From an uncultured Gammaproteobacteria bacterium (GTDB lineage: Bacteria; Patescibacteriota; Patescibacteriia; UBA9934), in the NCBI GenBank assembly GCA_964552565.1, contig CAZKGL010000001.1, forward strand, positions 567,060 to 626,815: DNA of 59,756 bases, in the 5' to 3' direction. The translations under genes and the position numbers were made by a program. This document shows positions 2,420 to 48,661 of this stretch, piece after piece. Under the pieces are notes generated by a model that was not told the origin of the DNA, did no database searches, and was given only the letters and a program-made list of their open reading frames with translations. Position 1 is the stretch's first letter, and every line of letters begins with the position of its first letter.

Positions 2420-2422
2420 ACA

Positions 2423-2641: not shown

Positions 2642-2661
2642 ACGTCAGGGAGTCAAAAACA

Positions 2662-2695
2662 ATGTAAATATGAAACATATTTACATATAGGTCAA
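2662..2695 (-). promoter_or_regulatory. Internal promoter with a perfect 11-bp inverted repeat (candidate operator)
   Basis: ATGTAAATATG-aaa-CATATTTACAT at 2662-2686; minus strand reads TTGACC-17 nt-CATATT across it. Confidence 0.5.
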
Positions 2696-2719
2696 CTTTT
2701 TAATAACAGACGCTATATT

Positions 2720-3133
2720 TTACCTGTCTTTAGCGATAAAATCGGCAATTTTTTCAAGGGTAGCGTCCGGCCTCACCTTTAGTTCATGTCCCCAGACTCG
2801 GAGAACACGCCATCCGTTTCTTCGGAGGTATCGGTGGTTCCGTTTATCTCGCTGTATATTTGATTCGATTTTTTCCTGCCAGTATTGGCCAGGAATTCTG
2901 CTCTTCCATTGTGTAAAGCGATAGCCATGCCAAAAATCACCGTCAATAAAAACGGCAATCTTCTTTGAGGGGACTGCGATGTCGGGTTTTCCTCGTACTC
3001 GACTGTAGTGCCGCTGGAAATGGATGCCGTTGCGGCGGAGATATGAAAACGCTGCTTTCTCTATGCCGGTATTCTTACTTCGAATCCTGGCCATTATCTG
3101 GCTCCTTTTTTCCCTTGAGAAGACATCCGCCAT
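2720..3133 (-). CDS. vsr: Very short patch repair endonuclease
   Basis: MADVFSREKRSQIMARIRSKNT, GKPDI, FIDGDFWHG, LRVW: Vsr signatures; start reassigned to 3133. Confidence 0.93.
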   Translation of the reverse strand: MADVFSREKRSQIMARIRSKNTGIEKAAFSYLRRNGIHFQRHYSRVRGKPDIAVPSKKIAVFIDGDFWHGYRFTQWKSRIPGQYWQEKIESNIQRDKRNHRYLRRNGWRVLRVWGHELKVRPDATLEKIADFIAKDR

Positions 3134-3137
3134 AAAC

Positions 3138-4100
3138 CTAAGACTCCAGTGCGATGCGGATGCTCTCGGCAATGCGGGCGATAACCGGGATTGTGACTGA
3201 GTTTCCCACCTGCTTATAGTGATAGCACGCCGCTTGGTTATCGGGAAAGACAAATGAATCTGGAAATCCCTGCAGGCGAGCGCACTCCCTTGGCGTCAGC
3301 TTTCTAATGCCGTTGGCATCCCGAACAATCGGTACGTTATGTCCTCCGACTCCCATGCTTGCCGTCAGCGTTGGGCATACGCCGCTCTTGTTTTCGCGTA
3401 CATAAACGCGGCGGTACTGATAGACTTTGTCCTTGCGTTTAGCGATGGCCTTTAATTTGGGGAAGATGTACTTATCTTCGGGGCCATAGTAATACTTTTC
3501 ATCGACTTTTTTCTCGAGAACGCCGTTCATTGTTTTGGTGAGCGGAATCGGCTCTGGCCACCGGAATTTAAGCATGGTCTTCGGATTGCTGAACCCGACG
3601 ATATAAACGCGTTCACGAGTCTGCGGAACATTGCCAAAGTGCATACTGTTCAGCACCTTGGCTTCAATTGTGTAGCCCGCATTATGCAGCTCTTCGCTAA
3701 CCCTTTTGAACGTTTCTCCGTGGTCGTGATTAATGAGGTGCTTTACGTTCTCCAGGAAAATCGCCCTCGGTTTTCTCGCTTTCAAGATTTCAATTACAGC
3801 AAACAGCAAATCGCCGCGCCCCTTATCGGCGAAGCCTCGTTTATGGCCGGCGATGGAAAATGGCTGACATGGGAAGCCGCCGAGCAGGATGTCAAAACGC
3901 TTGGGAACTCGTTTCATCCCTGGTTCTTTGATAACGTCAAAAAGATTAGCGACGTCGATTTCGCCGAAATTGAGCCTATAGGTTTCCGCCGCCTTTTGGT
4001 CGATGTCATTCGAATATGCAATATCAAAACCAGCGGCTTCAAAACCGATACGAACGCCCCCGACACCGGCGAATAGGTCAATAGCTCTTAAACTGTCCAT
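3138..4100 (-). CDS. C5-cytosine DNA methyltransferase
   Basis: DLFAGVGG, GFPCQPFS, FLENV, QTRERVYIVG, YKQVGNSV motifs; start reassigned to 4100. Confidence 0.97.
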   Translation of the reverse strand: MDSLRAIDLFAGVGGVRIGFEAAGFDIAYSNDIDQKAAETYRLNFGEIDVANLFDVIKEPGMKRVPKRFDILLGGFPCQPFSIAGHKRGFADKGRGDLLFAVIEILKARKPRAIFLENVKHLINHDHGETFKRVSEELHNAGYTIEAKVLNSMHFGNVPQTRERVYIVGFSNPKTMLKFRWPEPIPLTKTMNGVLEKKVDEKYYYGPEDKYIFPKLKAIAKRKDKVYQYRRVYVRENKSGVCPTLTASMGVGGHNVPIVRDANGIRKLTPRECARLQGFPDSFVFPDNQAACYHYKQVGNSVTIPVIARIAESIRIALES

Positions 4101-4502
4101 GTTTCTTTGAAAAAGTCGGGATATTACGTGGTGCAATCATACCAGTTTGAGGCCGTTTAATAAAATAAGTTGTCCGCAGTGTTTGAGCGGGTACAGAGAC
4201 TCGAGGAATGTTCGGTTTTTTTTAATGCCGGAGGGACTTAAAATGCGTTATAAATAACGCATGAGTTTGTACGGCTTGCGACTATAAGCGCAGGATATTA
4301 TACTGTCACTACAATTGAGCCTAAACCAAGCGTTTCCACGTTCGGCATGGCACTTAAACCCAACCAGGATACTGAACCCGTCGTTCAGCAATCCTGGTTG
4401 GTCGTACCCCGAAAGGGGTGCGTTGTCCCGAAAGGGGCAAAAGCTGGCGGCGGGCTTTGTGTTTGCCGACAGTCGAATAAACACCCAACCAACCAGGGTA
4501 AT

Positions 4503-4892
4503 ATGAAAAAATGTCCATTTTGCGCCGAAGAGGTGCAAGACGCGGCGGTGAAGTGTAAGCACTGCCAGAAGTCTTTGAGTTCAGTAACGCCAAGTCAAGC
4601 AATCCAGACAGAGGTCATCAAGCCCCAGACTGAATACGCCAGGACGCTTGGAGCCAAAGTTGGGAACGTGTTCGGCGTTTTCATTATCATTGGCGGTATT
4701 GTCAATCTCGTTCAGCCGACCAAGGAGATGCCGCCGCTGGCCAGCCTATTTGTAATACTCTTTGGCCTCGCGCTCATGGATTTCCATATGCCGTGGCTGA
4801 AGCGTAAGTGCAGCCTGAAAACGATTGATAGGCTGCGTGTCGGCATTCCTGTCGGCATTCTTTTCGTGCTTGTCATTCTTTCCGCTCTTTAA
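4503..4892 (+). CDS. Zinc-ribbon membrane protein
   Basis: MKKCPFCAEEVQDAAVKCKHC followed by three hydrophobic segments. Confidence 0.8.
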   Translation: MKKCPFCAEEVQDAAVKCKHCQKSLSSVTPSQAIQTEVIKPQTEYARTLGAKVGNVFGVFIIIGGIVNLVQPTKEMPPLASLFVILFGLALMDFHMPWLKRKCSLKTIDRLRVGIPVGILFVLVILSAL

Positions 4893-4893
4893 T

Positions 4894-5403
4894 ATGCAGA
4901 CCAAGAAATGCCCATTCTGCGCGGAGGACATCGTTAATGAGGCAGTGTATTGCAAACACTGCAAAAGCGACCTATCGGCCAAGGCCCAGCCAGCGAAGAA
5001 AAAGACGGGGCTTAATTGCGTAGGCGCAGCAGTCTTCTTCGGTGCTTTATTCTTCATCCTCATGCTTGGCGCAGCGGCTACGATGGATACAACGAGCCTT
5101 TCTACTGAAACTGATACAGCGTTCCATGAGCCAAACATTTGCGATATCAACTCCTACGTTGCTGGCGCGGTGATTCAGGGCTATGCTAAGTATCCTGACG
5201 AGGCAAAGCAGTCATGCACTTACGCTAGCATGAAGGACTTGGGTAATCACGAGTACGAAATTAACGGCTACGTCAAGGCAAAGAACGCATTTGGAGTAGA
5301 AGGGCGTATCTATTACACGGTTGTCATGCGCTATAAGGGTGGAACAACAAATGATTTCGACAATTGGGAATTGGTCAGTGGTCCGGAAATCACGACCGAA
5401 TAA
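4894..5403 (+). CDS. Zinc-ribbon membrane-anchored protein
   Basis: MQTKKCPFCAEDIVNEAVYCKHC, one TM segment, soluble C-terminal domain. Confidence 0.8.
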   Translation: MQTKKCPFCAEDIVNEAVYCKHCKSDLSAKAQPAKKKTGLNCVGAAVFFGALFFILMLGAAATMDTTSLSTETDTAFHEPNICDINSYVAGAVIQGYAKYPDEAKQSCTYASMKDLGNHEYEINGYVKAKNAFGVEGRIYYTVVMRYKGGTTNDFDNWELVSGPEITTE

Positions 5404-5638
5404 AGATTATCCACAGTATCAGCTTGAAGGAATCCGTTTTATGTGCTAAATGTAGCTCATCATCAAAGCGTGATACGCGACCGAGACCCATTCTCGGCGA
5501 CTGGCATTTCGGCCAGTGTGCTACCCGCATAGTCGGCTTCAGCACGTCGCTCGCGCCCTAGACCATACGATTGTCATAGTGCATCCCCCTGACCCACGGG
5601 CGCTCTATGACTTTTCGTTTTTATAGGGTCAGGGGCCT

Positions 5639-6589
5639 ATGCCTGAGAAAAAGTTAGAGGAACTGTTCGAGGAGTTTCTTTACGAATGCGATAACGTTGC
5701 CCGTTTGCGTCCAGAAACGCTAAAGGGCTACCGAGCAGCATTCGACTTGCTCATGAAGGTTGGAGAGAATTCCACTCTGACAACCATTCAGGAGCCAAAG
5801 TTCATGACGAACTTCTTTGCCAATTTACGCACACGTCCGCGTAAGGTTGGGAAAGATACGTTCACTAGCGGAATCAAGGAGAGTACAAGCGCAACGTATC
5901 ACGCGAAGCTTAAGAAGTTCTTCCGGTGGCTAAAGGCAAGGGACTACATCAAGGAGAATCCCTTCGACAAGATGGTTGCGCCGAATGTCGAGTATCTCGA
6001 TAGGAAGTTTCTTAAAAAAGAGGACGTTCACAAGTTGTTCCATGCTTGCAACTTGGTGATTCGTTGGGAAAACGATTTCGTTCGTCGCCGCAATCTCGCC
6101 ATGCTCGCCGCGTTGCTGTATTGCGGCTTGCGTCGCGGTGAGCTGCTTGGCCTGGAATTGCGTGATGTAGACCTGGAGCGCCGCGTGCTGACGGTACGTG
6201 GCGAGACGTCGAAGTCAAAACACATGCGGCGTATTCCGCTCAATGTCGAAGTAATGCGAACTTTTGAAGACTATCTTCGCGCCCGCGGAGCGCAAGGTGT
6301 CAACACATCAGCATTGTGGGCATCTAGCACTGAACACAGCGGACTTACGAGAGACGGTTTGAAGCACTTGGTCACTAAGCTGAATCGGGAGTCGGGAGTG
6401 AAGTTCCACATCCATCAGCTACGGCACACCTTTGCCGTCAACCTCTTAGCTCAAAGCGTCGATGTCGCAAAGATTCAGCAGCTCATGGGCCACAAAGATA
6501 TCAGGATGACCGCCAAGTATGTCCGATGTTTCCCGGCTGATGAAATGCGCAACGATGTAGCGTCACTCAATTTTGACCAACTAATTTAG
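5639..6589 (+). CDS. Tyrosine recombinase/integrase (XerC/D-like fold)
   Basis: GLRRGE, HQLRHTFA, LMGH and KYV catalytic motifs. Confidence 0.95.
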   Translation: MPEKKLEELFEEFLYECDNVARLRPETLKGYRAAFDLLMKVGENSTLTTIQEPKFMTNFFANLRTRPRKVGKDTFTSGIKESTSATYHAKLKKFFRWLKARDYIKENPFDKMVAPNVEYLDRKFLKKEDVHKLFHACNLVIRWENDFVRRRNLAMLAALLYCGLRRGELLGLELRDVDLERRVLTVRGETSKSKHMRRIPLNVEVMRTFEDYLRARGAQGVNTSALWASSTEHSGLTRDGLKHLVTKLNRESGVKFHIHQLRHTFAVNLLAQSVDVAKIQQLMGHKDIRMTAKYVRCFPADEMRNDVASLNFDQLI

Positions 6590-6598
6590 CCCTATAGT

Positions 6599-6859
6599 AT
6601 GAATAATCAGCAAGAACAAGAGGGAGAAGTTTTAAAGAATATCCTTATTCTTTGCAATCACTGTCGGCACGCCTGGTCACCCGTTCTAGTTGATGAAGAC
6701 CACGTATCTGACGCTACCAGCCGATGCTCGAAATGTCATAGCGCCGACTGGTCCGGCTATCTTCATGTGATAGATTCAAAGCACGACTTAAATTGGCGCA
6801 CTTTCGAGACCCTTATCGAGAGTGAGGAGATTATGGAATTAGGTATGAAGATGTCATAA
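6599..6859 (+). CDS. Small CxxC..CxxC protein directly after the integrase
   Basis: CNHC and CSKC; 9 nt after the integrase stop. Confidence 0.6.
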   Translation: MNNQQEQEGEVLKNILILCNHCRHAWSPVLVDEDHVSDATSRCSKCHSADWSGYLHVIDSKHDLNWRTFETLIESEEIMELGMKMS

Positions 6860-6953
6860 AAGTTGTAGGCGGAGGGACTAGTTGCGGAAAATCTGAAACC
6901 GAAGGCCGCCAAGCTGATTGGCGGCCTTGTACGTCTATTAAATTCGCAGCGGA

Positions 6954-8033
6954 TTATCCTGTGCCGACGATGTACTCAGCTCGCTTTAAAAGCTCGTCAA
7001 AAGTGAGTATTTCGATACCCGTGACACTTTGTCTAAATCTCTGGAAAGTGTCTCTCGCATCCCGCCTTTCTGCGATGCTCGCCAATCTGCCGATTATGAG
7101 AATGCCACTTGGCGACGTCGTATATGCCTTTTTACTTTCCAGCTTGTCACTGTTGGTGGCTAGCCGCGAGCCGTTGTTATCCCATTGGCAACAATTGGCT
7201 TGTAGTTGAGTAATACCATCGGTTAGCTCGTTCGCTAGACTCCATGCGCCATTTCTCTGAGCATCGGCACCCTTCAATAGTCGAGTAGCTGGCGTTTTAA
7301 TTTCCACCAGTACAGTAAAACCAATGTCGCCCTCGGTCACGCAGAGGATATCGCCTTTTTCTCCGCCGGAACCGTCCATGGCGACTCCGCCGTAATGCGG
7401 TTGGGATTGTTCGAGCCTCAGAATCTGATAGTTTAGACCGTAACCGAAAATCCACTTGTTAGCTTCGAAGAACTTCTGCCAGTAGGACTCCTGTCCATCG
7501 CCCTTTGTCTCGAGGCTGATTCTATATTCTTCCAGCACTTTCTTCCTTGCCGCTTGCAAGTGGCCAAGAGATAATTTTGTAGCTAATCCGGGGTCATTTT
7601 TCTCCAGCTCTCCCCAGAAGTCACTAGGGTAATCTCCGCTCAGCAGCTGTTTAATAACTTGGTATTTGTTTTCTTCCGTAACCGTAAGTACGTTGGATTT
7701 TTCCACGACGGCATACTGCCGAGTGCCGTTAGGAATCCCTTGATTAACGATTTCTTGTCTCGTGGCGACTCCAGCTACGAGCTTAGCGAGTTCAGCGGTT
7801 CCAATTTCAATTTTTACCCCTTCATTAAGTTTAAGTTTTCGGAAGTCCTCCTCAGGTATCTGCTCCCAGTCCTGTCCGCGCTCCTTCTTAAATCTTACAA
7901 GACGACCACGAACACCTCCGTTGTGCACTTCCGGCTGAAACACCAAACAAGTTGTAGGTGTTTGCTCGAGCAGTATCCAGTCAGTTTTAGCGAATCCACG
8001 GCCTACGGTTTGCGTGGTTATAACTTCTCCCAT
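6954..8033 (-). CDS. sduA: Shedu anti-phage nuclease (DUF4263 family)
   Basis: ESYWQKFFEANKWIFG, KGDIL, VLVEIKTP, GITQL, GILIIGR, EILTFDEL pattern typical of DUF4263. Confidence 0.85.
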   Translation of the reverse strand: MGEVITTQTVGRGFAKTDWILLEQTPTTCLVFQPEVHNGGVRGRLVRFKKERGQDWEQIPEEDFRKLKLNEGVKIEIGTAELAKLVAGVATRQEIVNQGIPNGTRQYAVVEKSNVLTVTEENKYQVIKQLLSGDYPSDFWGELEKNDPGLATKLSLGHLQAARKKVLEEYRISLETKGDGQESYWQKFFEANKWIFGYGLNYQILRLEQSQPHYGGVAMDGSGGEKGDILCVTEGDIGFTVLVEIKTPATRLLKGADAQRNGAWSLANELTDGITQLQANCCQWDNNGSRLATNSDKLESKKAYTTSPSGILIIGRLASIAERRDARDTFQRFRQSVTGIEILTFDELLKRAEYIVGTG

Positions 8034-8266
8034 ATTAGTAGGAATTCTAGAACATCAGCCTTTGCTGCCAGTAAGTTGAGGCATTCTATTGGCTCATATA
8101 TAATATAGAGACAATCTAGCATACATATTCATTCAAAAGAACATCAGAAACCTCACTGAGTTCGCGGCAAAAAACGGGTCTATCGTTAAGGGGGTAAGAA
8201 ACTTGCCAAAAGTAACTTTCTTCCTTATACTCTGCACCATTCCTACCAATTCCCCTATGGGAACTT

Positions 8267-8312: not shown

Positions 8313-8344
8313 AAAAGTCCTCTGCAATTTGCAGGGGATTTTTT
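8312..8344 (+). terminator. Rho-independent terminator after the tRNA 3' end
   Basis: GTCCTCTGC-AATTT-GCAGGGGAT followed by a T-run. Confidence 0.7.
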
Positions 8345-8421
8345 GTTTGCGTTTGTATACTAGACAGCCTTTTTCGGGTGTGGTGAGGATGGATACGGGC
8401 TCAGCCCTAGGGGGAAAAATC

Positions 8422-9858
8422 ATGCATGTGTTGGGACTGTTCTGGGGGATCGGCGCGGGCTGCGGGACCGGCAGCGTGAAGCTCGACGACACCGGGGGCG
8501 GCGAAACGGATACGTCGCCCAAGGACTCTGGCGACACCAGTACGCCGAACGACACCGGCGAGGTGGAGCCTGGCGAGGAGCTCGAGGCGGCGTTCACCAT
8601 CAGCGGCGAGCTGCGGAGTCTCTTCGGCATGTCGCTCGGCGAGGGCGACGTGGACGGCGACGGCTCGGACGACTTGCTCGTCGGCGCGCCCGGCATCCAG
8701 CGCGACGAGGACTACGTCGGGACGGGCGCCATGGGCGAGGTGTGGCTGTTCCACGGCCCCATCCTCCCCGACTCGCACCCGCGCTCCACGCACTTCACCG
8801 GCATCGCCGAGGGCGACAGCATCGGCACGGCCGTCGCACACGGCGACTTCAACAAGGACGGCGTGCGTGACGTCGCGGTCGGCGGCGGCATGGCCACGCC
8901 CGACAACCCGGACGCCTCCGGCTTCGTCAGCGTCGTCTCCGGCCCGTTCACGGACGAGGTCGCGCTGTCGCGCGGGACGATGCTGTCGCTCGGCAGTCCG
9001 GCTGATGCGTTCGGCGCCGCGCTGCTCGCGGACGACATCACGGGGGACGGTGTCGACGACCTCGTTGTCGGCGCGCCGCGCGCGTCGAGCGGGGAAATCC
9101 TCGTCTATGCCGGTTCCGAGCTCTACGCGCTCGGGTGGTCGGTCATGTTCACCGCGATCGCGACCAGCGAGACCGACGCGTTCGGTTCCGCGCTCGCGAG
9201 CGGCGACGTCAACGGCGACGGCATCGCCGACCTCATCGTCGGCGCGCCGGGCGCGAACGGACTGGAAGACGCCACGGGAGCCGCGTACCTGTTCGAAGGC
9301 CCGCTGCTCACCAGGGAAGCGGACTTCCCCGGCACGGCACGCGGCGACCGCATGGGCGCCAGCGTCGATCTCGACGACCTCGACGGCGACGGCTACGCGG
9401 ACGCCATCATCGGCGCGCCGGGCAGCGACAACGGCGGCCTCGAGGCGGGCCTCGTCACCATCGTCGCTGGATCGAGCGCGTCGGTGGTCGCCGAAGAGGA
9501 GGTCACGCTCCGCGGTGAGCAGGCCGGTGCGCAGGCCGGCACGAGCGTCGCCTTCGCCCACGACATGAACGGCGACGGCAACTACGACCTCGTGGTGGGC
9601 GCCCCGGCGTACGACGCGGAAGACGCGATCGACGCCGGCCGTGCGTACCTCGTGCTCGGCCCGGTGGAGGGCAGCCACACGCTCGCGGCGAGCGACCATG
9701 TCACCGGCTACACGACGAACATGCGGCTCGGGCTGTCAGTGCTCGGCGACACCGAGCTCACCGGCGACAGCATGGCCGACATCGTCCTCGGGGGCCCGAA
9801 CACGAGCTACCCCGAGGCCGAGATGACGGGCATCGTCCTGTTCCTGGCCGGCTACTGA
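8422..9858 (+). CDS. FG-GAP (integrin-alpha-like beta-propeller) lipoprotein
   Basis: Repeated GD(V/F/I)xGDGxxDLxVGAP motifs; AGC lipobox; DTG-rich linker; very high GC3. Confidence 0.85.
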   Translation: MHVLGLFWGIGAGCGTGSVKLDDTGGGETDTSPKDSGDTSTPNDTGEVEPGEELEAAFTISGELRSLFGMSLGEGDVDGDGSDDLLVGAPGIQRDEDYVGTGAMGEVWLFHGPILPDSHPRSTHFTGIAEGDSIGTAVAHGDFNKDGVRDVAVGGGMATPDNPDASGFVSVVSGPFTDEVALSRGTMLSLGSPADAFGAALLADDITGDGVDDLVVGAPRASSGEILVYAGSELYALGWSVMFTAIATSETDAFGSALASGDVNGDGIADLIVGAPGANGLEDATGAAYLFEGPLLTREADFPGTARGDRMGASVDLDDLDGDGYADAIIGAPGSDNGGLEAGLVTIVAGSSASVVAEEEVTLRGEQAGAQAGTSVAFAHDMNGDGNYDLVVGAPAYDAEDAIDAGRAYLVLGPVEGSHTLAASDHVTGYTTNMRLGLSVLGDTELTGDSMADIVLGGPNTSYPEAEMTGIVLFLAGY

Positions 9859-22098: not shown

Positions 22099-23103
22099 CT
22101 ATGAAGTAAACACGCTGCGCTTGTAGGCTTCAAGGTTTTCGAGCGCGAGCCCGGTGCCGCGGGCGACGCACAGCTGCGGGTCTTCGGCCGCGTACGTCGG
22201 CACGCCGGTCGACTCGGCAATGAGCCGGTCGAGGTTGCGCAATTGGCTCGAGCCGCCGGAAATGACAATGCCCTTGTCCATGACGTCCGCAGCAAGTTCC
22301 GGTGGTGTTTCGTACAGCACGTCCTTCAGCGTCGTCAGGATGCCCTCGAGGAGCGGCTGGATCGCTTCGGTCACGTCATCGCTCGACACTTCGACGATCT
22401 TCGGAAGGCCGGTAATCATGTCACGCCCCTTCACTTCCATACGGAGCTTTTCCGAAAGGTACATCGCCGAGCCGCAACGAATCTTGATCTCCTCGGCCGT
22501 GCGCTCGCCGATGGCAAGCCCGTACGTGCGGCGGATGTGCTCCATGATGGCGTGGTCGAATTTGACGCCGCCGATGCGCACCGATGTCGAGGCGACGATA
22601 CCGCCGAGCGAAATGACCGCCATCTCGCTCGTACCGCCGCCGATCTCGACGATCATGTGGCCGTTCGGGGAGCCGATCGGGATGTTCGCGCCAATCGCGG
22701 CGACGATCGGCTGTTTGATGATGTATGCCGCCTTCGCGCCGGCTGCGATGGTCGCGTCGATGACCGCGCGGCGCTCCGTCGACGTGATGCCGCCCGGCAC
22801 GGCGACCATGACCTCGGGGCGGAAGATGCGCATGCCGCCGAGCGCCTTGTTAATGAAGTAGCGCAGCATCGCCTCGGTGGTGCGGTAGTCGGCGATGACA
22901 CCGTCCTTGAGCGGGCGGCGGGCGACGATGGTGTCCGGCGTGCGGCCGAGCATGTCTTTCGCCTCTTTGCCGACCGCGAGGATCGACTTATCAATCTTCG
23001 ACACCGCAACGACCGACGGCTCGTTAATGACAATGCCGCGCTTTGGCACATACACCAGCACGGTCGTGGTCCCGAGGTCGATCCCGATCTTTTTCTGCAG
23101 CAT
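22099..23103 (-). CDS. mreB: MreB/Mbl rod-shape actin homolog
   Basis: IGIDLGT, NEPSVVA, EIGGGT, GERTAEEIK. Confidence 0.96.
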   Translation of the reverse strand: MLQKKIGIDLGTTTVLVYVPKRGIVINEPSVVAVSKIDKSILAVGKEAKDMLGRTPDTIVARRPLKDGVIADYRTTEAMLRYFINKALGGMRIFRPEVMVAVPGGITSTERRAVIDATIAAGAKAAYIIKQPIVAAIGANIPIGSPNGHMIVEIGGGTSEMAVISLGGIVASTSVRIGGVKFDHAIMEHIRRTYGLAIGERTAEEIKIRCGSAMYLSEKLRMEVKGRDMITGLPKIVEVSSDDVTEAIQPLLEGILTTLKDVLYETPPELAADVMDKGIVISGGSSQLRNLDRLIAESTGVPTYAAEDPQLCVARGTGLALENLEAYKRSVFTS

Positions 23104-23108
23104 AGTCC

Positions 23109-23125
23109 GGGTGACTTAGTCACCC
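23109..23125. repeat. GACTTAGTC-core palindrome 6 nt upstream of mreB
   Basis: GGGTGACT-T-AGTCACCC, 8-bp arms; core is the reverse complement of the RAYT-flanking motif. Confidence 0.6.
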
Positions 23126-23179
23126 TAGTCTAAACGACCCGGCCTGGGATGACAACGGACCGTTTTTCTTGTAGCGACA

Positions 23180-23247
23180 GCCCATCCTGAACGAAGTGAA
23201 GGATCCCTCGGGAGAGATCCTTCACTGTACCGCTCCTCGGGATGGTT
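23180..23247. repeat. Palindromic intergenic element, family CCATCCYGA...CCTCGGGATGGTT (copy 1)
   Basis: Outer stem plus inner 11-bp stem AGTGAAGGATC/GATCCTTCACT. Confidence 0.65.
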
Positions 23248-23249
23248 TC

Positions 23250-25235
23250 TTACTTCACCCGAAGCATGACGCTCTTGTCCGTATCGAGCACGGTTTCGTA
23301 GTGGTACGAGTTGTCGCCCCAGTCGCTTTCATCTTCGCCCGGTACGGCGTAGGTCACTTCGTTCGTCATGTCGCCAAAGGTAAGGTTGAGCACAAGGTCA
23401 TGGTCGGCTGCGCCGAGTTGTTTCAGAATATTGAGTTCGTAGACACCGGCGTCGATCGCGTCCTCTACCTGCTGCGGCAGCCGGTAGGTAACACTGAGCG
23501 TGCGCGTCTCGCCGGGTTCGATGGACGTGAACGCGCCGAACGACGTCATGCCAAGCTCGTCGACCGTCGTCACTTCCCCTTCTTTGCCAGACGGGTTCAA
23601 TAGCGTGTCGTTATCGAGCGTGCCCGAGGAAGACACGAGCTCGCTGCCAAGCGGAGCATACACTCGCGTGTAGGTCCGATAGCGCGTCGTCTTCCAGGTG
23701 AACGATGCGTTGTTCGTGTACGTAATAGCGACGGTCGCCTCGTAGCCTTCACCCGACGGAGTCACCGTGTAGGCGATTTCCCGGTCGACTTCCGGGTCGG
23801 TTTTCAGCGCGCCGAGGTTGGCATCGACGACCATCAGCACGTCATCCGACCCTCCCGCCGCAACCTCCCCGCTCCAGCCGGCGTCGTGGTAGATCGCCTG
23901 CGTCTCCTCGTCCGCGCTCCAGAGCGCAAGCTCCTTTTCGCTGAACCCTTCGGTGAGGATGCCGAAGAGCTCGGGCCATTCGCTTGCGGGGAGCGCGAGC
24001 AGACGGTCGACGACGATGTCGGTCATCCGCGCGACGACCTCCTTGCGCTGGTGCGGCGGCAACCCCTGCTCCGCATACCCGATCTCGACCTGGTATTCCA
24101 GCTTGTCCGCGATGTTGTCCGACGTGAACGTCTGGTCGTCGACGGTGACCGGTCCGGTCATGGCAAGGAGTCGCGCAATGAACGTCGGCGTAAACATGAG
24201 GGCTCCGTGCACCTCCGGGACCGGCTGCCCGGCGTACGCCACCTCTTGGCGCAGGAGCTGCACCGAGTCCTTTGCCGACGCCGGGAAGTCCGGCGACCAG
24301 TTGCTGTCGCGGAAGTACCACTTCGGCACGCCAAGGTAGCGCGCAAGGGGCGTCGGCGGGGTCACCTGGTAGCCGTCGTCTGCAACCAGCTGGTCGAGGC
24401 GGTACACGTCCTCTGCGGCAAGGTTCACGATTTCCCCGTCGCGAGTAATGGCAAGCGCAAACACGCCGAGAAACCCTCCGCCCGGCCGCAGTTCCGTGTC
24501 GTTCGCGAACAGGAGCAGGAACTGCCGGTCTTCACCGAGGCCGGCGAGCTCGGGGACGGCCGCGGCAAATGGCGTGAGGAGGTTGACGGCGTCCGCAAGC
24601 GGGTCGATGAGTTCGGCAAAGGGGGCGACCGCGTCGGTGAGCATCGGCGACACGTCAAGCGCCGCAAGGCGTGCGAGGTCGTCTTTGGCGAGGGAAAGCT
24701 TCAGCTGCATCGTGAGGAGGTCGGGGTACGCGTCGTGGAGCGATTCGAGCAGCGCGACCCGCGCCGAGGTCGCCAGGTCGGCATACGGGACGCTCTCTCG
24801 TTCAGTGATGTCGACGAGCGCCTGCGCCTCCTTGGTGACGGTCGAAATGTCCGCAACGATGCGCACGGCCTCGTGGAGCGCGGCGAGGGTTTCCGCCGCG
24901 GCGTCAAGCGTCAGCGCGAGGCCCTTCAGCTGCGTGCCGACCCACGGCACCGGACGCAAAAACACGACAAGGCGGACGCCGGATTGCGCGCGGGAGACGC
25001 CGGCCTCGGCATCGGTCAGTGCCGTATCTGCAGTAAGAAAGTCCCCTGCTCTGAGGGCGTCTTCGGCGTCGGCAGCGGCCGCCTTGGTCGTCGCGAGCCC
25101 GCCGGCGATGCGCCCTGCGCCGACGACGAGGAGCGCGCCGAGCACGACGACTCCCGCCAACACGACGCACGCAACAATCATGACGCCGCGTCGGCGCTTA
25201 CGCGGCGGGTGTCTCAGTGGTCCCTCCCCATTCAT
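23250..25235 (-). CDS. DUF4012-domain membrane protein
   Basis: LLLFANDTELRPGGGF, FRDSNWSPDFP. Confidence 0.88.
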   Translation of the reverse strand: MNGEGPLRHPPRKRRRGVMIVACVVLAGVVVLGALLVVGAGRIAGGLATTKAAAADAEDALRAGDFLTADTALTDAEAGVSRAQSGVRLVVFLRPVPWVGTQLKGLALTLDAAAETLAALHEAVRIVADISTVTKEAQALVDITERESVPYADLATSARVALLESLHDAYPDLLTMQLKLSLAKDDLARLAALDVSPMLTDAVAPFAELIDPLADAVNLLTPFAAAVPELAGLGEDRQFLLLFANDTELRPGGGFLGVFALAITRDGEIVNLAAEDVYRLDQLVADDGYQVTPPTPLARYLGVPKWYFRDSNWSPDFPASAKDSVQLLRQEVAYAGQPVPEVHGALMFTPTFIARLLAMTGPVTVDDQTFTSDNIADKLEYQVEIGYAEQGLPPHQRKEVVARMTDIVVDRLLALPASEWPELFGILTEGFSEKELALWSADEETQAIYHDAGWSGEVAAGGSDDVLMVVDANLGALKTDPEVDREIAYTVTPSGEGYEATVAITYTNNASFTWKTTRYRTYTRVYAPLGSELVSSSGTLDNDTLLNPSGKEGEVTTVDELGMTSFGAFTSIEPGETRTLSVTYRLPQQVEDAIDAGVYELNILKQLGAADHDLVLNLTFGDMTNEVTYAVPGEDESDWGDNSYHYETVLDTDKSVMLRVK

Positions 25236-38079: not shown

Positions 38080-38328
38080 AACGTACACTGCCCGTTGTTT
38101 CAGCGGGTTTCACAACCAGGAGAGAGCGCGGCACCGGCGTAGACGGGGTGCACCCCAAAGTACGGAATCACCGTACCCCACGGGGAAAGGCGGGATTGTC
38201 TCTCTTTGCAAAAAGGGCGGTAATCTCGCCTTTTGCGTTGCTCCCATGGCACTCGATTCCATCGAATGCCGCGGGAGCGGACGCATGTGCGACCGCTGAC
38301 ATCCACCCCTTCCCTCCTGGAGGATTCA
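38080..38328 (+). ncRNA. ~250-nt structured leader or ncRNA
   Basis: At least six consecutive helices between the promoter and the first GTG. Confidence 0.5.
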
Positions 38329-38649
38329 GTGAAGAATTTCACCCTGAACGACGACGGCATGCTGACCCCCCGGGCCCGCATGCTCCTCGACGAAGCAATG
38401 AACAAGATGGACGCCGTCCGGGACGGCGACGTGTGCGAGATCGCCACCGACGGCGTCGGATGGACGATCTTGCGGGACGGCTACCCCATCGAGGTGCAGG
38501 CCGCGCGCGACGCCCAGATCCTCGCGGCGACGAAGGGGGCGCTCTGCTGCTCCCTCATCCCCGATGAAGGCGTCGTCATCTTCGTCAAGGATCCCGAGCT
38601 CGATGCGGAGCTCGGGCGCTGGATCGCCAACCAGCGCATGCACGCCTAG
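38329..38649 (+). CDS. Orphan protein (106 aa, GTG start)
   Basis: GGAGG RBS, high GC3. Confidence 0.7.
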   Translation: MKNFTLNDDGMLTPRARMLLDEAMNKMDAVRDGDVCEIATDGVGWTILRDGYPIEVQAARDAQILAATKGALCCSLIPDEGVVIFVKDPELDAELGRWIANQRMHA

Positions 38650-38652
38650 CCC

Positions 38653-38737
38653 CTCGCGGAGGGAGCACGTCACACGACGCGTCTCCGCTCCCTCCGCAGG
38701 TCCCCAGAGCGCTCACGATGTGAACGCTGCGGGGACC
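38653..38737 (+). repeat. REP-like double-hairpin element (array spacer 1)
   Basis: CTCGCGGAGG..TCCCTCCGC-AG-GTCCCC-AG-..-GC-GGGGAC. Confidence 0.7.
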
Positions 38738-38767
38738 GCGTAACACTTGTTCGCGGCAGAGGTCCAC

Positions 38768-39163
38768 ATGTACACGCACATCCTGGTGCTCTTCTTCGAC
38801 CCGAAGGATCCGTCCCTCCCGCAGTACGCGGTGAGGGCCGGCGTCCGTGGGCAGGTCTGCGACCGGCGCTACTCGGAGTTCACGGTCATCTGCACGGCGA
38901 AGACCCGTCAGGAGATCCTCCGCGCGGTCGCGAAGGCCGACGATGCCCTCGCGCTCCAGATGGAGGAGGACTCCGCGCTCCCGCCGATCTCCGCCTGGCG
39001 CGCGGTCGACGAAGCGATCCGGGGGGTCGACGGCATCACGATGATCACCCGCAACGTCGACATCGACGTGCGCCACTCGGCCTGGAAGAAGACGCGCGTC
39101 GGCCGCCAGTTCCGCGGCACGCACGAGACCGACCGCTACGCCTGGATCACCCGCGCCGCCTGA
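38768..39163 (+). CDS. Orphan protein (131 aa)
   Basis: GAGG RBS, high GC3. Confidence 0.75.
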   Translation: MYTHILVLFFDPKDPSLPQYAVRAGVRGQVCDRRYSEFTVICTAKTRQEILRAVAKADDALALQMEEDSALPPISAWRAVDEAIRGVDGITMITRNVDIDVRHSAWKKTRVGRQFRGTHETDRYAWITRAA

Positions 39164-39193
39164 CGGCGCACAACCCTGTACCTGGAGCATCCC

Positions 39194-39388
39194 ATGAACG
39201 CACGCACGGTCAGCATCGACTACCTCATCGGCCGCCGCATCGCCGCCCTGCCCGATCTGACGCACCTCGACCCCGAGGACGTCGGCGACACGCAGCGGGC
39301 TCGGATCGAGGAGATCGTCGAGGACGTGCAGTCCGAGCACGAGATCACGGTCGACGAGGACGACGAGTCCGCGTTCGACTGCTGGTAG
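39194..39388 (+). CDS. Orphan acidic protein (64 aa)
   Basis: GGAG RBS, high GC3. Confidence 0.65.
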   Translation: MNARTVSIDYLIGRRIAALPDLTHLDPEDVGDTQRARIEEIVEDVQSEHEITVDEDDESAFDCW

Positions 39389-39403
39389 CCGAACAACACC
39401 GCG

Positions 39404-39527
39404 CTCGCGGAGGTTGAGGCGCATGTCTCCCGCCTCCCTCCGCCAGCCCCCAGAGTTCTCGATTCATCCACATGTCGAAACTTAGTTTCGAAACTAAGTT
39501 TCGACATGAATCGAGGATTGCGGGGGC
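39404..39527 (+). repeat. REP-like double-hairpin element (array spacer 2) containing a perfect 38-bp palindrome
   Basis: Homologous to 38653-38737; palindrome at 39471-39508. Confidence 0.8.
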
Positions 39528-39570
39528 CATCGCAGCTGTCGCTGCGGTGTTGAAACCTACGGAGGTGCCT

Positions 39571-39792
39571 ATGTACCCCATCGTTGCCGCCGGCGTCTTC
39601 ACGCAGTTCGCGGAAGCCCGAGCGCTGCTCGCGATGCCTGAAGCAGACCAACGCGCATGGCTCGCCACCCGCATGCCCGAGCTCGAGGTGAATCTCGCAT
39701 TCGAGCTGATCATCGAGGCGACGCGCGAGCTGGTCGCGCGTGAAGACAGCCGCGCGCCGAGCAAGCCCGGGTTCGACGACTGGCCGACCTAG
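39571..39792 (+). CDS. Orphan protein (73 aa)
   Basis: GGAGG RBS, high GC3. Confidence 0.7.
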   Translation: MYPIVAAGVFTQFAEARALLAMPEADQRAWLATRMPELEVNLAFELIIEATRELVAREDSRAPSKPGFDDWPT

Positions 39793-39843
39793 GCCGCCTT
39801 CCGCGGGCACGCGCGGACGTGCCTGCTGGACACGTCAGTTCCA

Positions 39844-39900
39844 GCAGCCCCCAGAGTTTCCGAGACTAAGTCGAGACTAAGTCTCGGGGATTGCGGGGGC
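39844..39900 (+). repeat. REP-like hairpin (array spacer 3) with GACTAAGTC doublet
   Basis: GCAG-CCCCC-AG-AGTTTCCGAGACTAAGTCGAGACTAAGTCTCGGGGATT-GC-GGGGG. Confidence 0.8.
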
Positions 39901-39967
39901 GGAGGATGTTATTGAAGAAACCATCGCCCACCCCCCTACCAACCCCAGCCCTTCACTCGGAGGGAGC

Positions 39968-40372
39968 ATGCGCCTGCATGCGCTCATCGCCGTCGTCGAC
40001 GGCTGTCTGGGGCCCGAGGTGCACGCGATCTCCCTGTCGTGTCCCTCGATGGAGTTCAGCGCGCGCCTCGCGAAGGCGCACGCCGAGAGCATGACGCGGT
40101 CGCGTCGGCCGAACGAGTTCTGGCAGCCGGGCTACCCGTGCTACCTGGTCTCGGTCCCGATCGATGATGACATGCGTGAGGCCATCACCCACGCGGCCGG
40201 CACGGCCGGTGCGTGGACCGCGTGGTGGATCGCGACGAACCTCGTGCCGCTCCTCGAGTGCCGCGAGGCCGCCGTGGCCGCCACCGTGTGCGCCACCTGC
40301 CCCAGGATCCAGATCTGCTCCATCGAGAACCCGATTGAGAGGTTCATCGCGACCGCCCTCGCGGTCTGCTGA
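39968..40372 (+). CDS. Orphan Cys-containing protein (134 aa)
   Basis: GGAGGGAG RBS, high GC3. Confidence 0.7.
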   Translation: MRLHALIAVVDGCLGPEVHAISLSCPSMEFSARLAKAHAESMTRSRRPNEFWQPGYPCYLVSVPIDDDMREAITHAAGTAGAWTAWWIATNLVPLLECREAAVAATVCATCPRIQICSIENPIERFIATALAVC

Positions 40373-45797: not shown

Positions 45798-47179
45798 AGC
45801 GGTTTCGTTGCCCATGTGGCGACATGCCACGTGGCGCGGACATCATCTTCGTTGTACTGCAGGATTCGTTCAAGCGCGGCGGTGTCGTCGCGGTTGAGCC
45901 AGTCCTCGTACCAGCCGATCGAGTCCATGCCGGACGCCTCACTGCTGCGCCAACGGAAGCCGAGGTACTTCGCCACGTCTTTCAAGGAATAAAATGACAA
46001 CGGGAAGATGATGCGTTCCCGCATCTTGCCGAGCACGTCGACCATGTGCGGCAGGACGATCCCGGGCACGTCCGGGGTCCCGTGCCGCTCGGCGAGCGCT
46101 TTGATGACATCGACCTCGAACCATCCGTAGTGCACGATAGGCATGCCCGGCTTTCCGGCGAGGTACGAAACGAACTCGCGCCACATCGTCCCTTCGTCTT
46201 CCGGTTTTTTGGCGAGGAATGCGCGGTACGCCGTCGCGCCGCCTTCGACCTCGAGCACGCCGATGAGGTAATGCGCGTCGCGCAAGGGGTCGCTCTCCAC
46301 GTCGATGACGAGCGCGCGCTCCATGGGCGGCAGGTCGACGGGGCCGAGCGCGATGACGCGGTCCTCCACGAGCGCCCTCGCCTGTTCCTGCAGGAACGCC
46401 AGCCGGTCGCCGGTGATGCCGTGGACGTGCGCGGCGAGGTATCCCTTGGTCGTGTGCGCAAAGTCGGTCACGGTACGGATGCCCGCGTCCGTCAGCGCCG
46501 TGACTTCGCTGCGCCAAATACGGTTGATGCGCGACAAATCGTCACATGCGCCCGTGTGCGTTTTGCAGACGTGGAACCATGGCGACTGTTTGCAGTCGCT
46601 CGTGAGGAAGTGCGGTTCCGCCTCGCCCTCCAAAATACGTTCAATCGCGTCGAGCGTCAGGTGAAACTTTGTCGTGTACTCCTCGAGCAGATAACTTTCG
46701 ACGATGCCGTCCGGGTGCATGACGTAGCCCTGCACCGGTTTGACGCCCTGCACGTGTGCGAGCAACTCCGCGTAAAAGCATCCCTGGAAACAGTACTCGT
46801 CCTTCAGTCGTTTGGATCGCTTGATGTCGCACGCCACATAGTAGTACTCGCCAAGACTCGAGGCGCCCTGCACGCGTTCGAGGATGTCCGGCCGTGCGAC
46901 CCAGTGTCCATGCATGAGGACGGGACGGTAGATGGTCTGCGTCCCCTGTTTCATGAGTTCCACCGTTTTCACGACCGCTTCGTCCAGGTCTTCCGTCACG
47001 ACTTCAACCATGGGACGCGTCGCCAAAAGCGCGAGTTCCTTCTCGCGCAAGAGGCCGTCGTCCTGCAATTTGACGCGCAGCGCGTCTTCAACCAGCTGCT
47101 CCTCCTTCGCTTCGTGCGCGATCCACGAGGGGCATTTCAGGTACTTATAGAAGCTGCGTTCGGTAATGACCTTCGGCAT
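45794..47179 (-). CDS. TM0106-family RecB-like nuclease with RNase-H-like C-terminal domain
   Basis: ARPDIL..CDIK..Q..Y; IDVESDP; YSLKDVA; YNEDDVRAT. Confidence 0.88.
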   Translation of the reverse strand: MPKVITERSFYKYLKCPSWIAHEAKEEQLVEDALRVKLQDDGLLREKELALLATRPMVEVVTEDLDEAVVKTVELMKQGTQTIYRPVLMHGHWVARPDILERVQGASSLGEYYYVACDIKRSKRLKDEYCFQGCFYAELLAHVQGVKPVQGYVMHPDGIVESYLLEEYTTKFHLTLDAIERILEGEAEPHFLTSDCKQSPWFHVCKTHTGACDDLSRINRIWRSEVTALTDAGIRTVTDFAHTTKGYLAAHVHGITGDRLAFLQEQARALVEDRVIALGPVDLPPMERALVIDVESDPLRDAHYLIGVLEVEGGATAYRAFLAKKPEDEGTMWREFVSYLAGKPGMPIVHYGWFEVDVIKALAERHGTPDVPGIVLPHMVDVLGKMRERIIFPLSFYSLKDVAKYLGFRWRSSEASGMDSIGWYEDWLNRDDTAALERILQYNEDDVRATWHVATWATKPL

Positions 47180-47233
47180 GGAAGGCAGTATATCGGCGCC
47201 CGGGCCGATGGTCTAGCAAACGCCAGTTATCCA

Positions 47234-47349
47234 CCGAGACTAAGTCTTGACGAAGCAAGCGAATTATCGAGAGAATATATGCATACTCCCCCTCGCTATT
47301 GCGGGCTCGGGAGCTTTTTGTTTCCGAGACTAAGTCATGACTAAGTCTC
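47234..47349. repeat. GACTAAGTC single site (47238-47246) and doublet (47328-47347) upstream of the RAYT
   Basis: CCGAGACTAAGTC twice; doublet period 11 bp. Confidence 0.85.
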
Positions 47350-47353
47350 AGTT

Positions 47354-47950
47354 ATGCGACAGTTCTCTTTTGTCAATGGAAACTACTACCACGTTATGAA
47401 TCGCGGTGTAGATGGCCGACCGATCTTTCTTGATAATACGGACCGAATCCGCTTTCTCCACGCGCTACATAGTTTTAACAATCAGAGGAGAATACATCCA
47501 ATAGTGGGCATCGCGGCATATTGCCTCATGGATAACCACTTCCACCTTTTGCTCAAGCAACTCTGCGAGGGAGGTATCAGCGCGTTTCTCCACAAGATCG
47601 GCATTGGGTATGTCATGTATTACAACAAGCGATATGAGCGCCGAGGCCGTCTATTTCAAAGTACATTCCACGCCGTGCCAGTTATAGCGAATGAGCATTT
47701 TCTCCATCTCACCCGCTACATCCATCTCAACCCGCTGGAAATACCCTTTCCTGGATGGGAAGTTCGCGGAGTCCCAAATATAGGAGCTGCCGAGGCGTTC
47801 CTCAAGCACTACCCATGGTCCAGCTATCAGCACTATATCGGCCAACGTACTGATCCCGTCGTCGATGCAACGGACTCGCTGGCGCTATTTCAAGATCAGG
47901 AGGATTATGAGTCATTTCTTCGCGAATGGATGGTACACGGCCGAGACTAA
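47354..47950 (+). CDS. REP-associated HUH tyrosine transposase (RAYT, Y1/IS200-like)
   Basis: YHVMNRG, AYCLMDNHFHLL (HUH), GRLFQ, YIHLNP, YPWSSY. Confidence 0.92.
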   Translation: MRQFSFVNGNYYHVMNRGVDGRPIFLDNTDRIRFLHALHSFNNQRRIHPIVGIAAYCLMDNHFHLLLKQLCEGGISAFLHKIGIGYVMYYNKRYERRGRLFQSTFHAVPVIANEHFLHLTRYIHLNPLEIPFPGWEVRGVPNIGAAEAFLKHYPWSSYQHYIGQRTDPVVDATDSLALFQDQEDYESFLREWMVHGRD

Positions 47951-47967
47951 GTCACGACTAAGTCTCG
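47941..47967. repeat. GACTAAGTC doublet overlapping the RAYT stop codon
   Basis: CCGAGACTAAGTCACGACTAAGTCTCG. Confidence 0.85.
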
Positions 47968-48013
47968 AGTGCTCAAAAACGAAAAACAGCCTTGTCGGCT
48001 GCTTTCGTGGGCT

Positions 48014-48661
48014 CTACTCGAGCTCATCCACCGTCACCTTTGTCATCACGACGTCCTCGAGCGGACGGTCCGCCGCGTCGGTCGGCGTCGTCGCGATGGC
48101 GTCGACCACCTCCATACCGGAGATGACGTAGCCGAAGATGCTGTAGTTGTGCGGCAAACCCGGCGTGTCCTTGTGCATGATGAAGAATTGGCTGCCGTTC
48201 GTGTCCGCGCCGCGGTTCGCCATTGCGACCGTCCCGCGGGTGTACGTGCGGTCGTCCGCGAGCTCGTCCGCAAAGTCATAGCCCGGGCCACCGCGGCCGG
48301 TGCCGGTTGGGTCGCCGCCCTGGATCATGAAGCCCTCGATGACGCGATGGAAGATGACGCCATCGTAGTAGCCTTCTTCAATGAGAGAGACGAAGTTCGA
48401 CACCGTGTTCGGCGCCGTATCCGGATAGAGCCCGATGACGATGTCGCCCTTGTTCGTGGAAATGCGGACTTGCTTGTTCTCGATGCGCTCAGCCGGAAGG
48501 ACGCCCGGGAACGCGTACGACGCGGTGTCGGTCATAGTCGTGTCGGATGAAGAATCGGTGGTCGTCGACGCGTCCGCGTCCGTGGACGCCGGCGTCGTCG
48601 GTGCGGCGCATCCTGCACCAAGGAGGGCGAGGAGCGCAAGCGGGATGAGATGCTTCGTCAT
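48014..48661 (-). CDS. Cyclophilin-type PPIase lipoprotein
   Basis: FHRVIEGFMIQGGDP, AMAN..GSQFFI; LGAGC lipobox. Confidence 0.96.
   Translation of the reverse strand: MTKHLIPLALLALLGAGCAAPTTPASTDADASTTTDSSSDTTMTDTASYAFPGVLPAERIENKQVRISTNKGDIVIGLYPDTAPNTVSNFVSLIEEGYYDGVIFHRVIEGFMIQGGDPTGTGRGGPGYDFADELADDRTYTRGTVAMANRGADTNGSQFFIMHKDTPGLPHNYSIFGYVISGMEVVDAIATTPTDAADRPLEDVVMTKVTVDELE

Follow-up and report, generated by a model that had tools for sequence, protein, structure and literature searches.

To our knowledge, nearly all work on systems in which a REP-associated tyrosine transposase (RAYT) is partnered by repetitive extragenic palindromic (REP) sequences has concerned Proteobacteria and Cyanobacteria and repeats that carry a GTAG foot. 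Here we describe a locus in a 59,756-nt stretch of DNA (the window, meaning the whole stretch; all positions below are those of the window) in which a RAYT-like Y1/HUH gene is bracketed by palindromes without such a foot. The locus is probably a cassette of the REPtron or TIRtron kind, that is, a class-2 Y1/HUH gene flanked by its own cognate, non-GTAG palindromes.

Several described systems can serve for comparison. Class 2 of the Y1 transposases (TnpA-Y1) is defined by the signature Y-x3-NP (Quentin et al. 2018, PMC6006769). Genes of the E. coli type, known as RAYT or TnpA-REP, form REPtrons together with REP sequences and bacterial interspersed mosaic elements (BIMEs) (PMC6006769, PMC8266576, PMC3479197), and REPtrons correspond to TnpA-Y1 subclasses 2.2, 2.4, 2.5, 2.7 and 2.8 (PMC6006769). 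Subclass 2.1, the largest Y1 subclass, has been described as being without REP-like partners; its signature combines NH[YF]H, FQ rather than WQ, Y[IV]HLNP and an SS tail, at a median length of ~238 aa (PMC6006769, Table 1). This subclass equals the Group 1 RAYTs of Bertels (PMC5581495) and most of the TIRYTs of Di Nocera et al. 2013 (PMC3733652), which belong to the TIRtrons. In the searchable literature, which is incomplete, we found no paper on REP-like partners of Y1 genes from the Candidate Phyla Radiation (CPR).

The cassette comprises the following features, with the strand given in brackets:

47195..48015 (no strand): lineage-specific, low-G+C insertion of ~821 nt that holds the whole cassette, delimited by empty-site comparison, with limits uncertain by a few nt
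47234..47257 (+): degenerate distal upstream doublet, CCGA-GACTAAGTC-TT-GACgAAGca, its second half matching at 6 of 9 bases and its predicted fold weak
47247..47276 (+): promoter-like TTGACG-18-GAGAAT, a candidate promoter of the RAYT-like gene (9 of 12 positions in a consensus scan)
47286..47323 (+): G+C-rich hairpin with CTTTTTGTTT directly after it, resembling a terminator or attenuator in RNA and DNA folds and placed after the promoter-like site and before the gene
47320..47351 (+): proximal upstream doublet, GTTTCC-GAGACTAAGTC-AT-GACTAAGTCTC-AG, from sequence, repeat search and fold
47354..47950 (+): RAYT-like Y1/HUH gene, 198 aa, with HUH motif H62-F-H64 and catalytic tyrosine Y122 in RYIHLNP, from Pfam, alignment and model
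47941..47967 (+): downstream doublet, CCGA-GACTAAGTC-AC-GACTAAGTC-TCG, from sequence, repeat search and fold

The doublets are built from a 9-mer of the form GACTWAGTC, which is strongly enriched in the window. On the plus strand, GACTAAGTC lies at 39864, 39875, 47238, 47328, 47339, 47945 and 47956, and GACTTAGTC at 23113; these eight occurrences compare with 0.21 expected, and none of 100 dinucleotide-preserving shuffles reached eight. A repeat search of the window placed the three doublets with a 2-nt spacer in a single 30-nt repeat family (80-100% identity). Sites 7.5 kb apart agree at 28 of 30 nt, and TTTCCGAGACTAAGTC, which the original prediction had reported as identical at 39857 and 47321, is indeed the same at both. 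The layout CCGA-GACTAAGTC-NN-GACTAAGTC-TCG(G) is an imperfect palindrome with 13-bp arms and one A.A mismatch; as single-stranded DNA, the doublets have predicted folds of -5.3 to -9.3 kcal/mol (z = -1.5 to -3.1), and no T-run follows them on the 3' side.

The placement of the doublets around the gene is tight. The last GACTAAGTC of the proximal upstream doublet runs to 47347, 6 nt short of the ATG at 47354, while in the downstream doublet the stop codon TAA (47948-47950) is the centre of the first 9-mer, the GACTAAGTC at 47945-47953; the placement given for both in the original prediction, with the repeat itself supplying the stop codon, is correct. The copy at 47238 adjoins TTGACG as had been said, but it is not single, being the first half of the degenerate distal doublet, whose TTGACG doubles as the first hexamer of the promoter-like match. 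Likewise, the 11-bp period that had been noted is real at this locus but specific to it. A terminator that we judged to be genuine adjoins the downstream doublet. At the 5' end of the gene, the RNA of 47280-47400 has a predicted fold of -35.1 kcal/mol (z = -2.99), in which GUUUCC of the doublet pairs with GGAAAC within the open reading frame (ORF) and the start codon is enclosed. The promoter-like site, the terminator-like hairpin and this modelled start-codon fold are compatible with self-limiting expression. The exact doublet had no match in viral contigs, and Rfam had no match at the cassette or at the orphan elements described below. A repeat of AGTTAT(C/G)C at 47224 and 47351 was considered as a target duplication and dropped, as a 7-mer match at such a distance is expected by chance.

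The ORF encodes an intact HUH/Y1 enzyme with a predicted RAYT-like fold. Pfam PF01797 (Y1_Tnp) matches residues 9-124 with 29.8 bits (gathering cut-off 23, E = 7.1e-7), and all of the residues that are invariant in the family (H13, N16-R17-G18, N61-H62-x-H64 and Y122-x-H124-x-N126 in a 31-sequence alignment) are kept in the window protein. The class-2 signature Y-x3-NP is present as YIHLNP at residues 122-127, with N126 invariant in the alignment. The subclass 2.1 motifs are found as NHFH, LFQ, YIHLNP and WSS, and in the family as NHFH, LF[QE], RYIHLNP and WSSY; on motif signatures only, the protein fits TnpA-Y1 subclass 2.1, as a short member (198 aa) of a family with lengths of 200-250 aa. 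The AlphaFold2 model has a mean confidence score (pLDDT) of 94.8 and shows a helical tail, for which Pfam reports no DNA-binding domain. In Foldseek, the top match of the model in the PDB is 4ER8, the E. coli RAYT with a REP hairpin (E = 1.2e-7, 179 columns), and next come the TnpA proteins of IS608, ISDra2 and IS200 (E of 6e-5 to 1e-3; ~129 columns for IS608 and ISDra2); a sequence search of the PDB with the window protein gave no significant match. The identification as a RAYT in the original prediction thus stands for the intact Y1/HUH core and for the closest solved fold, but the protein lies below the canonical RAYT cut-off. The description of the system as CPR-type is borne out, both by the host and by the relatives of the protein, which are mostly from CPR bacteria. 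The gene has one copy in the window, and looking up its protein led to no more than a Logan contig of 11 kb with 99.98% identity to the window.

For the wider family, a profile search of metagenome contigs gave 80 loci, to which look-ups added three (83 in total); the family profile matches at least 2,063 clusters at 50% identity with E <= 1e-30. Across this family, the protein clade is linked to lineage-specific odd palindromes that bracket each gene. Bracketing was tested on the 61 genes with at least 210 nt on either side: a word of at least 14 nt is common to the upstream and downstream flanks in 41 of these 61 homologues and in 10 of 240 control ORFs from the same loci. The shared words are odd palindromes, with perfect arms and one central base, which are often paired with flipped centres to form a longer hairpin; the spacing of such pairs varies across the family. 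Strict NNCTWAGNN palindromes have a density of 1.15 per kb in the flanks versus 0.048 per kb elsewhere. For upstream palindromes, whose centre base on the coding strand is A in 16 cases and T in 5, the median distance to the ATG is 18 nt; for downstream ones, the median distance from the stop codon is 6 nt, and at 11 of 76 loci the stop codon is inside a palindrome. When 104 palindromes are aligned on their centres, the consensus tip is A-R-G-Y-T-N-A-R-C-Y-T, of which AGACT-A-AGTCT in the window is a variant. A CTWAG centre is seen at roughly one locus in four, and L130, L158, L166 and L179 have GACTWAGTC itself.

The palindromes also change together with the protein. The nearest homologue of the window protein, in L130 (51% identity), is accompanied by the same GACTWAGTC core, TCGCGACTWAGTCGCGA, with a different outer stem. 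The original prediction had named close homologues without the flanking motif as the outcome that would speak against it; what the survey gave instead was this common core and the bracketing ratio above. Proteins that are nearest neighbours share a palindrome core in 16 of 30 cases versus 17% by chance, a comparison uncorrected for phylogeny. Three loci (L151, L155 and L196) hold two paralogues within 10 kb, each with a differing palindrome. Of the 83 genes, 32 themselves contain an in-frame odd palindrome (arms of 7 bp or more), in ~25 of them at residues 55-75, a position that corresponds to a variable loop before the HUH motif; many of these in-gene copies match the flank palindrome of their own locus. 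The window protein is without this loop. A layout of 5', internal and 3' sites whose sequences change together between lineages can be seen in L132, L141, L148, L152, L155, L161, L169, L177, L179, L186, L204-L207, L219 and others.

Outside the cassette, the window contains orphan palindromes, along with one hairpin whose membership of the system is uncertain:

23109..23125 (no strand): single perfect odd palindrome of 17 nt, GGGTGACTTAGTCACCC, centred on the GACTTAGTC at 23113, between the DUF4012 gene and mreB
38699..38736 (+): hairpin C, with arms GTCCCCAGAG...GCGGGGAC akin to those of A and B and an unrelated core, from repeat families; membership of the system uncertain
39446..39527 (+): orphan element A, an 82-nt hairpin whose core consists of overlapping 17-nt odd palindromes with flipped centres, TCGAAACTTAGTTTCGA and TCGAAACTAAGTTTCGA
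39847..39900 (+): orphan element B, a 54-nt hairpin in which arms of 26 nt enclose the core CCGA-GACTAAGTC-GA-GACTAAGTC-TCGG, from an inverted-repeat search

Element B is the one that the original prediction had placed at 39844-39900 with the doublet as its core. The core is right; the limits are refined to 39847-39900, and element A, ~400 nt upstream, had been missed. Both are intergenic: B lies between plus-strand genes that end at 39792 and start at 39968, and A between a stop codon at 39388 and a likely start at 39571. The core of A is TCGAAACTTAGTTTCGAAACTAAGTTTCGA, with inner 19-nt arms that are 100% complementary, and A and B have common outer arms, GCCCCCAGAGTT...GGATTGCGGGGGC. C, A and B occupy successive intergenic spacers of a small plus-strand operon, and among the short plus-strand genes of 38233-40372 it looks as if one hairpin scaffold hosts two palindrome types with differing CTWAG-centred cores. 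The remaining orphan, GGGTGACTTAGTCACCC, precedes the mreB start codon by 5 nt. A Y1 homologue in an Uhrbacteria locus (L122, 3001-6612) lies directly upstream of DUF4012-mreB, the same gene pair that flanks the palindrome at 23109 (window 22099-25235).

The host, judged by its sequence, is an Uhrbacteria-like CPR bacterium; its MetK is 100% identical to a protein on a contig of 838,942 bp, and the best named relatives of this MetK belong to Candidatus Uhrbacteria and Patescibacteria. Two contigs whose MetK is 75% identical (L217 and L218) have the gene order of the window, namely MetK, PPIase (peptidyl-prolyl isomerase), RNase_H_2, ExoVII (exonuclease VII) and PyrH, and in these the PPIase stop is 12 nt from the RNase_H_2 start (GAGTGATATACTCACTTCATG). 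In the window, GAGT (48019-48016) and GATATACTGCCTTCCATG (47194-47177) are retained but stand ~821 nt apart; thus, the cassette lies within a lineage-specific insertion of foreign composition. G+C in the insertion is 44-55% versus ~63% around it, with the low-G+C tract extending over ~47200-48000, and G+C at third codon positions (GC3) is 0.55 in the Y1 gene versus 0.81-0.95 in host genes. The window as a whole has ~63% G+C versus 46-57% in the syntenic contigs of the nearest available relatives (L211-L218), so the host lineage is unusually G+C-rich for its group, and this is part of the reason why the composition of the cassette stands out. The GC skew signal is weak. The contig of the nearest MetK relative (L213, 88% identical) ends short of the junction and gives no empty site.

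The PPIase 3' junction is itself variable, being followed by RNase_H_2 in L217 and L218, by RDD and a 71-aa gene in L215 and L216, by L27 and NifU in L211 and L214, and by the RAYT cassette in the window (47177-48019). Between the divergent L27 and NifU genes of L211 (MetK 82% identical), positions 6854-6872 hold a flipped-centre pair, GACTTAGTC-T-GACTAAGcC, and the 12.5 kb available from this relative contain no Y1 gene.

How the locus resembles the described systems, and where it departs from them, can now be stated. It is like a REPtron in having a single Y1/HUH gene of the Y-x3-NP type with a palindrome on both sides, in the occurrence of the flank palindrome as intergenic orphans, in the separate palindrome of each paralogue and in 4ER8 as the best structural match of the model. 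The imperfect stem, with its A.A mismatch, has a parallel in the bulge of E. coli REPs, and the in-gene, in-frame palindrome in part of the family has one in what is described for subclass 2.4. It differs in that no GT[AG]G precedes the hairpin foot at 0-2 nt, whichever strand is read (the window palindromes have GTTTCC, ACGGCC, ATCCAC, AATCCC, ATAACT and AGCACT as their 5' flanks), in agreement with the original prediction that these repeats are unlike GTAG-footed REPs, which have a GTAG or GTGG foot. It also differs in its odd palindromes with the tip given above, in their low observed copy number, in a protein below the NCBI RAYT cut-off, in a CPR host with a genome of ~0.8 Mb or more and in the foreign composition of the gene. 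With TIRtrons and their TIRYTs, the locus has in common non-GTAG flanking repeats that are partly or wholly self-complementary and in some cases overlap the gene ends, small repeat families, signs of horizontal transfer and a length range for which ~220-240 aa is typical in the subclass; the majority-type TIR motif GGGGWSAS, however, is absent from the window flanks (CCGAGACTAAGTC...). Compared with subclass 2.1 as described, the CPR clade stands apart in that its genes are, as a rule, tightly bracketed by perfect odd palindromes.

The same 9-mer occurs in a second setting. A scan of a genome collection with the permissive pattern GACTWAGTC-N0-6-GACTWAGTC gave at least 120 loci, and among those listed (L001-L120) the tandem repeat lies ~12 nt upstream of a small Phd/YefM antitoxin gene in 79 of 120. 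These Phd/YefM loci come from Acidobacteriota, Chloroflexota, Actinomycetota, Gemmatimonadota, Proteobacteria and Cyanobacteria; the spacer is 3-4 nt in 88 of 122 doublets among the matches listed, often within a promoter-like TTGACT...TAtaat, and the arrangement looks like a widely conserved autoregulatory operator. A Y1 homologue is present in 2 of the 120 listed doublet loci, and tblastn with the 79 antitoxins found no Phd/YefM homologue in the window. The tandem 9-mer is identical in the two settings, but the antitoxin operators have a 3-4 nt spacer instead of the 2 nt found here and have no palindromic outer arms; the window doublets and the Phd/YefM operators are unrelated, a case of sequence convergence.

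Other explanations of the locus have to be weighed against the cassette just proposed. It could be an autonomous insertion sequence (IS) like IS200 (IS200/IS605, subclass 1.1), with the doublets as subterminal end hairpins, the 0.8-kb unit as the part that moves and the orphans as relics or solo ends. IS200 likewise is a unit of ~0.7-0.8 kb with one Y1 gene, subterminal hairpins and no TnpB, so that its size is near that of the cassette, and its left end has a terminator-like hairpin and then a hairpin at the translation start, an order that recurs here. The cassette is also an insertion when set against the PPIase/RNase_H_2 junction of relatives, it reaches ~40-48 nt beyond the outer hairpins, as for subterminal hairpins, its composition is foreign (GC3 0.55 against 0.81-0.95), and the TnpA proteins of IS608 and ISDra2 are significant structural matches. 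The relatives with the empty site are distant, though (MetK 75-82% identical), and the junction varies among them. The Y motif is of the RAYT type as well, the class-2 signature Y-x3-NP instead of the Y-x3-Q of IS200 (PMC6006769, Table 1), and where the IS200 protein is core-only at ~150 aa, the window protein has YIHLNP, 198 aa and a helical C-terminal tail. No multicopy, near-identical elements were seen: the window has one copy, and there are no near-identical cassettes in differing contexts among the 83 family loci. Homologue contexts are instead stable, as in the syntenic L133, L136 and L137, where the gene is 97.5-100% identical versus 85-96% for the flanks, and in P0046, which has the same neighbours in 9 contigs; within-locus paralogues are divergent and have differing palindromes. 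Finally, the same palindrome is found at both ends and in orphans, and the orphans are a single palindromic unit, two of them with unrelated outer arms in common. We therefore regard an IS200-like element as unlikely.

The doublets might also be operators in double-stranded DNA, bound by the Y1 tail or by an unrelated regulator, and serve transcriptional control rather than DNA processing. An 11-bp period is one helical turn, the sites are beside a promoter-like sequence and 6 nt from the ATG, another is 5 nt from the mreB ATG, the Phd/YefM genes of many phyla carry the same tandem 9-mer (79 of the 120 listed loci), and the tails of subclass 2.1 proteins resemble helix-turn-helix domains (PMC6006769). 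Yet the window has no Phd/YefM homologue, and the Phd/YefM operators differ in spacer, promoter overlap and outer arms; in the Y1 family, palindrome spacing is inconstant, and downstream and in-frame copies have no obvious promoter. With a tail in which Pfam finds no DNA-binding domain, and with catalytic residues that are invariant family-wide and that a pure repressor would not need, this reading appears very improbable. A role as chance repeats or as structural elements (terminators or mRNA-stabilising hairpins) unlinked to the gene is scarcely tenable. Intergenic hairpins are common, the z-scores of the hairpins are modest (-1.5 to -3.1) and a genuine terminator adjoins the downstream doublet, but the doublets themselves lack a T-run, the motif is enriched ~40-fold over shuffles, sites 7.5 kb apart are identical at 28 of 30 nt, the association of gene and palindrome beats that of control ORFs and the palindromes co-vary with the protein. 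It is thus already contradicted by the enrichment, the family bracketing, the paralogue palindromes and the sharing between nearest neighbours.

A REPtron- or TIRtron-like cassette therefore remains our preferred reading, based on the motif enrichment, the intact core and fold, the family bracketing, the co-variation of palindrome and protein, the orphans and the insertion. A number of observations weigh against it. Against the canonical RAYT model (NF047646, REP_Tyr_transpos, an equivalog), the window protein scores 41 bits (E = 1.7e-10), below the 80-bit cut-off. Quentin et al. found no REP-like sequences or secondary structures beside subclass 2.1 genes (PMC6006769). Copy number is low, with 3 orphans in 59.7 kb of window, far below classical REP families, and 15 orphans (more than 300 nt from the gene) in 364 kb of related loci, or ~1 per 24 kb; ~86 kb from host relatives yielded one element and zero homologues of the gene. 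The 104 family palindromes have no conserved flank position and no guide or cleavage tetranucleotide, and with no conserved foot motif or GT[AG]G guide the cleavage site is not predictable. Odd palindromes at a spacing of 11 bp, about one helical turn, would also suit a dimeric binder of double-stranded DNA. A role for enzymes of this clade in cleavage and joining is argued by analogy.

By analogy with E. coli TnpA-REP and IS608 TnpA (PMC8266576, PMC3479197, PMC6006769), the cassette could work as follows. When single-stranded, the doublet would fold to a hairpin with a 13-bp stem and one A.A mismatch, and the enzyme would read both the conserved tip and the stem peculiar to each lineage. The strand would then be cut and rejoined nearby by Tyr122 with the metal bound at the HUH motif, and such cleavage and rejoining may occasionally copy or move short palindromes, giving rise to orphans. 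The proximal hairpin is 6 nt from the ATG and follows a terminator-like hairpin, and on the basis of this position and of the predicted 5'-UTR fold, expression of the gene is probably limited by these sites too, as the original prediction had proposed; this is the least supported step.

The other end of the window holds genes of a different kind. Positions 1-8100 are a low-G+C island (~49%) that looks like an integrated defence island, with the following genes:

2720-3253 (-): Vsr mismatch endonuclease
3138-4136 (-): C5 DNA methyltransferase
5639-6589 (+): tyrosine integrase
6954-8033 (-): Shedu SduA defence protein

Within the island, upstream of the integrase, is a full-length LOOT RNA (Rfam RF03000) at 4318-4439 (+), with 81.4 bits versus a gathering cut-off of 46.4. 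The gene at 8329-9858 (+) encodes a 509-aa protein with six FG-GAP repeats, which explains the direct repeats D1 and D2 with a period of 171 nt.

For the family as a whole, a bolder interpretation is possible, which we put forward tentatively and consider doubtful as it stands. The CPR-centred Y1/HUH branch may be an undescribed REP-like system in which each gene has up to three concertedly evolving cognate odd palindromes, in the 5' flank, in an in-frame surface loop and in the 3' flank or stop codon, all with the tip A-R-G-Y-T-N-A-R-C-Y-T in common. Rather than seeding hundreds of repeats, the enzyme would have its own cassette as its main substrate, whether for excision as a single strand, for exchange, for correction of copies or as a switch at the DNA level, and the element in the window would be a stripped-down, recently transferred member.

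If the REP-like reading is true, the host genome should hold tens of copies of the palindrome, nearly all of them intergenic, and a second paralogue bracketed by TCGAAACTWAGTTTCGA and cognate to element A. A large branch, made up mostly of CPR bacteria and with motifs of the subclass 2.1 type, would then have cognate hairpins, and the logic of recognition would differ, with a conserved hairpin tip and no guide tetranucleotide. Cognate hairpins would persist in genomes of <1 Mb, where selfish repeats are least expected. A compact enzyme of 198 aa with a 30-nt substrate would be available for studying how Y1 enzymes choose their hairpin and cleavage site, and the cassettes would serve as a marker by which gene transfer and hotspots of rearrangement could be followed in CPR bacteria that are uncultured.

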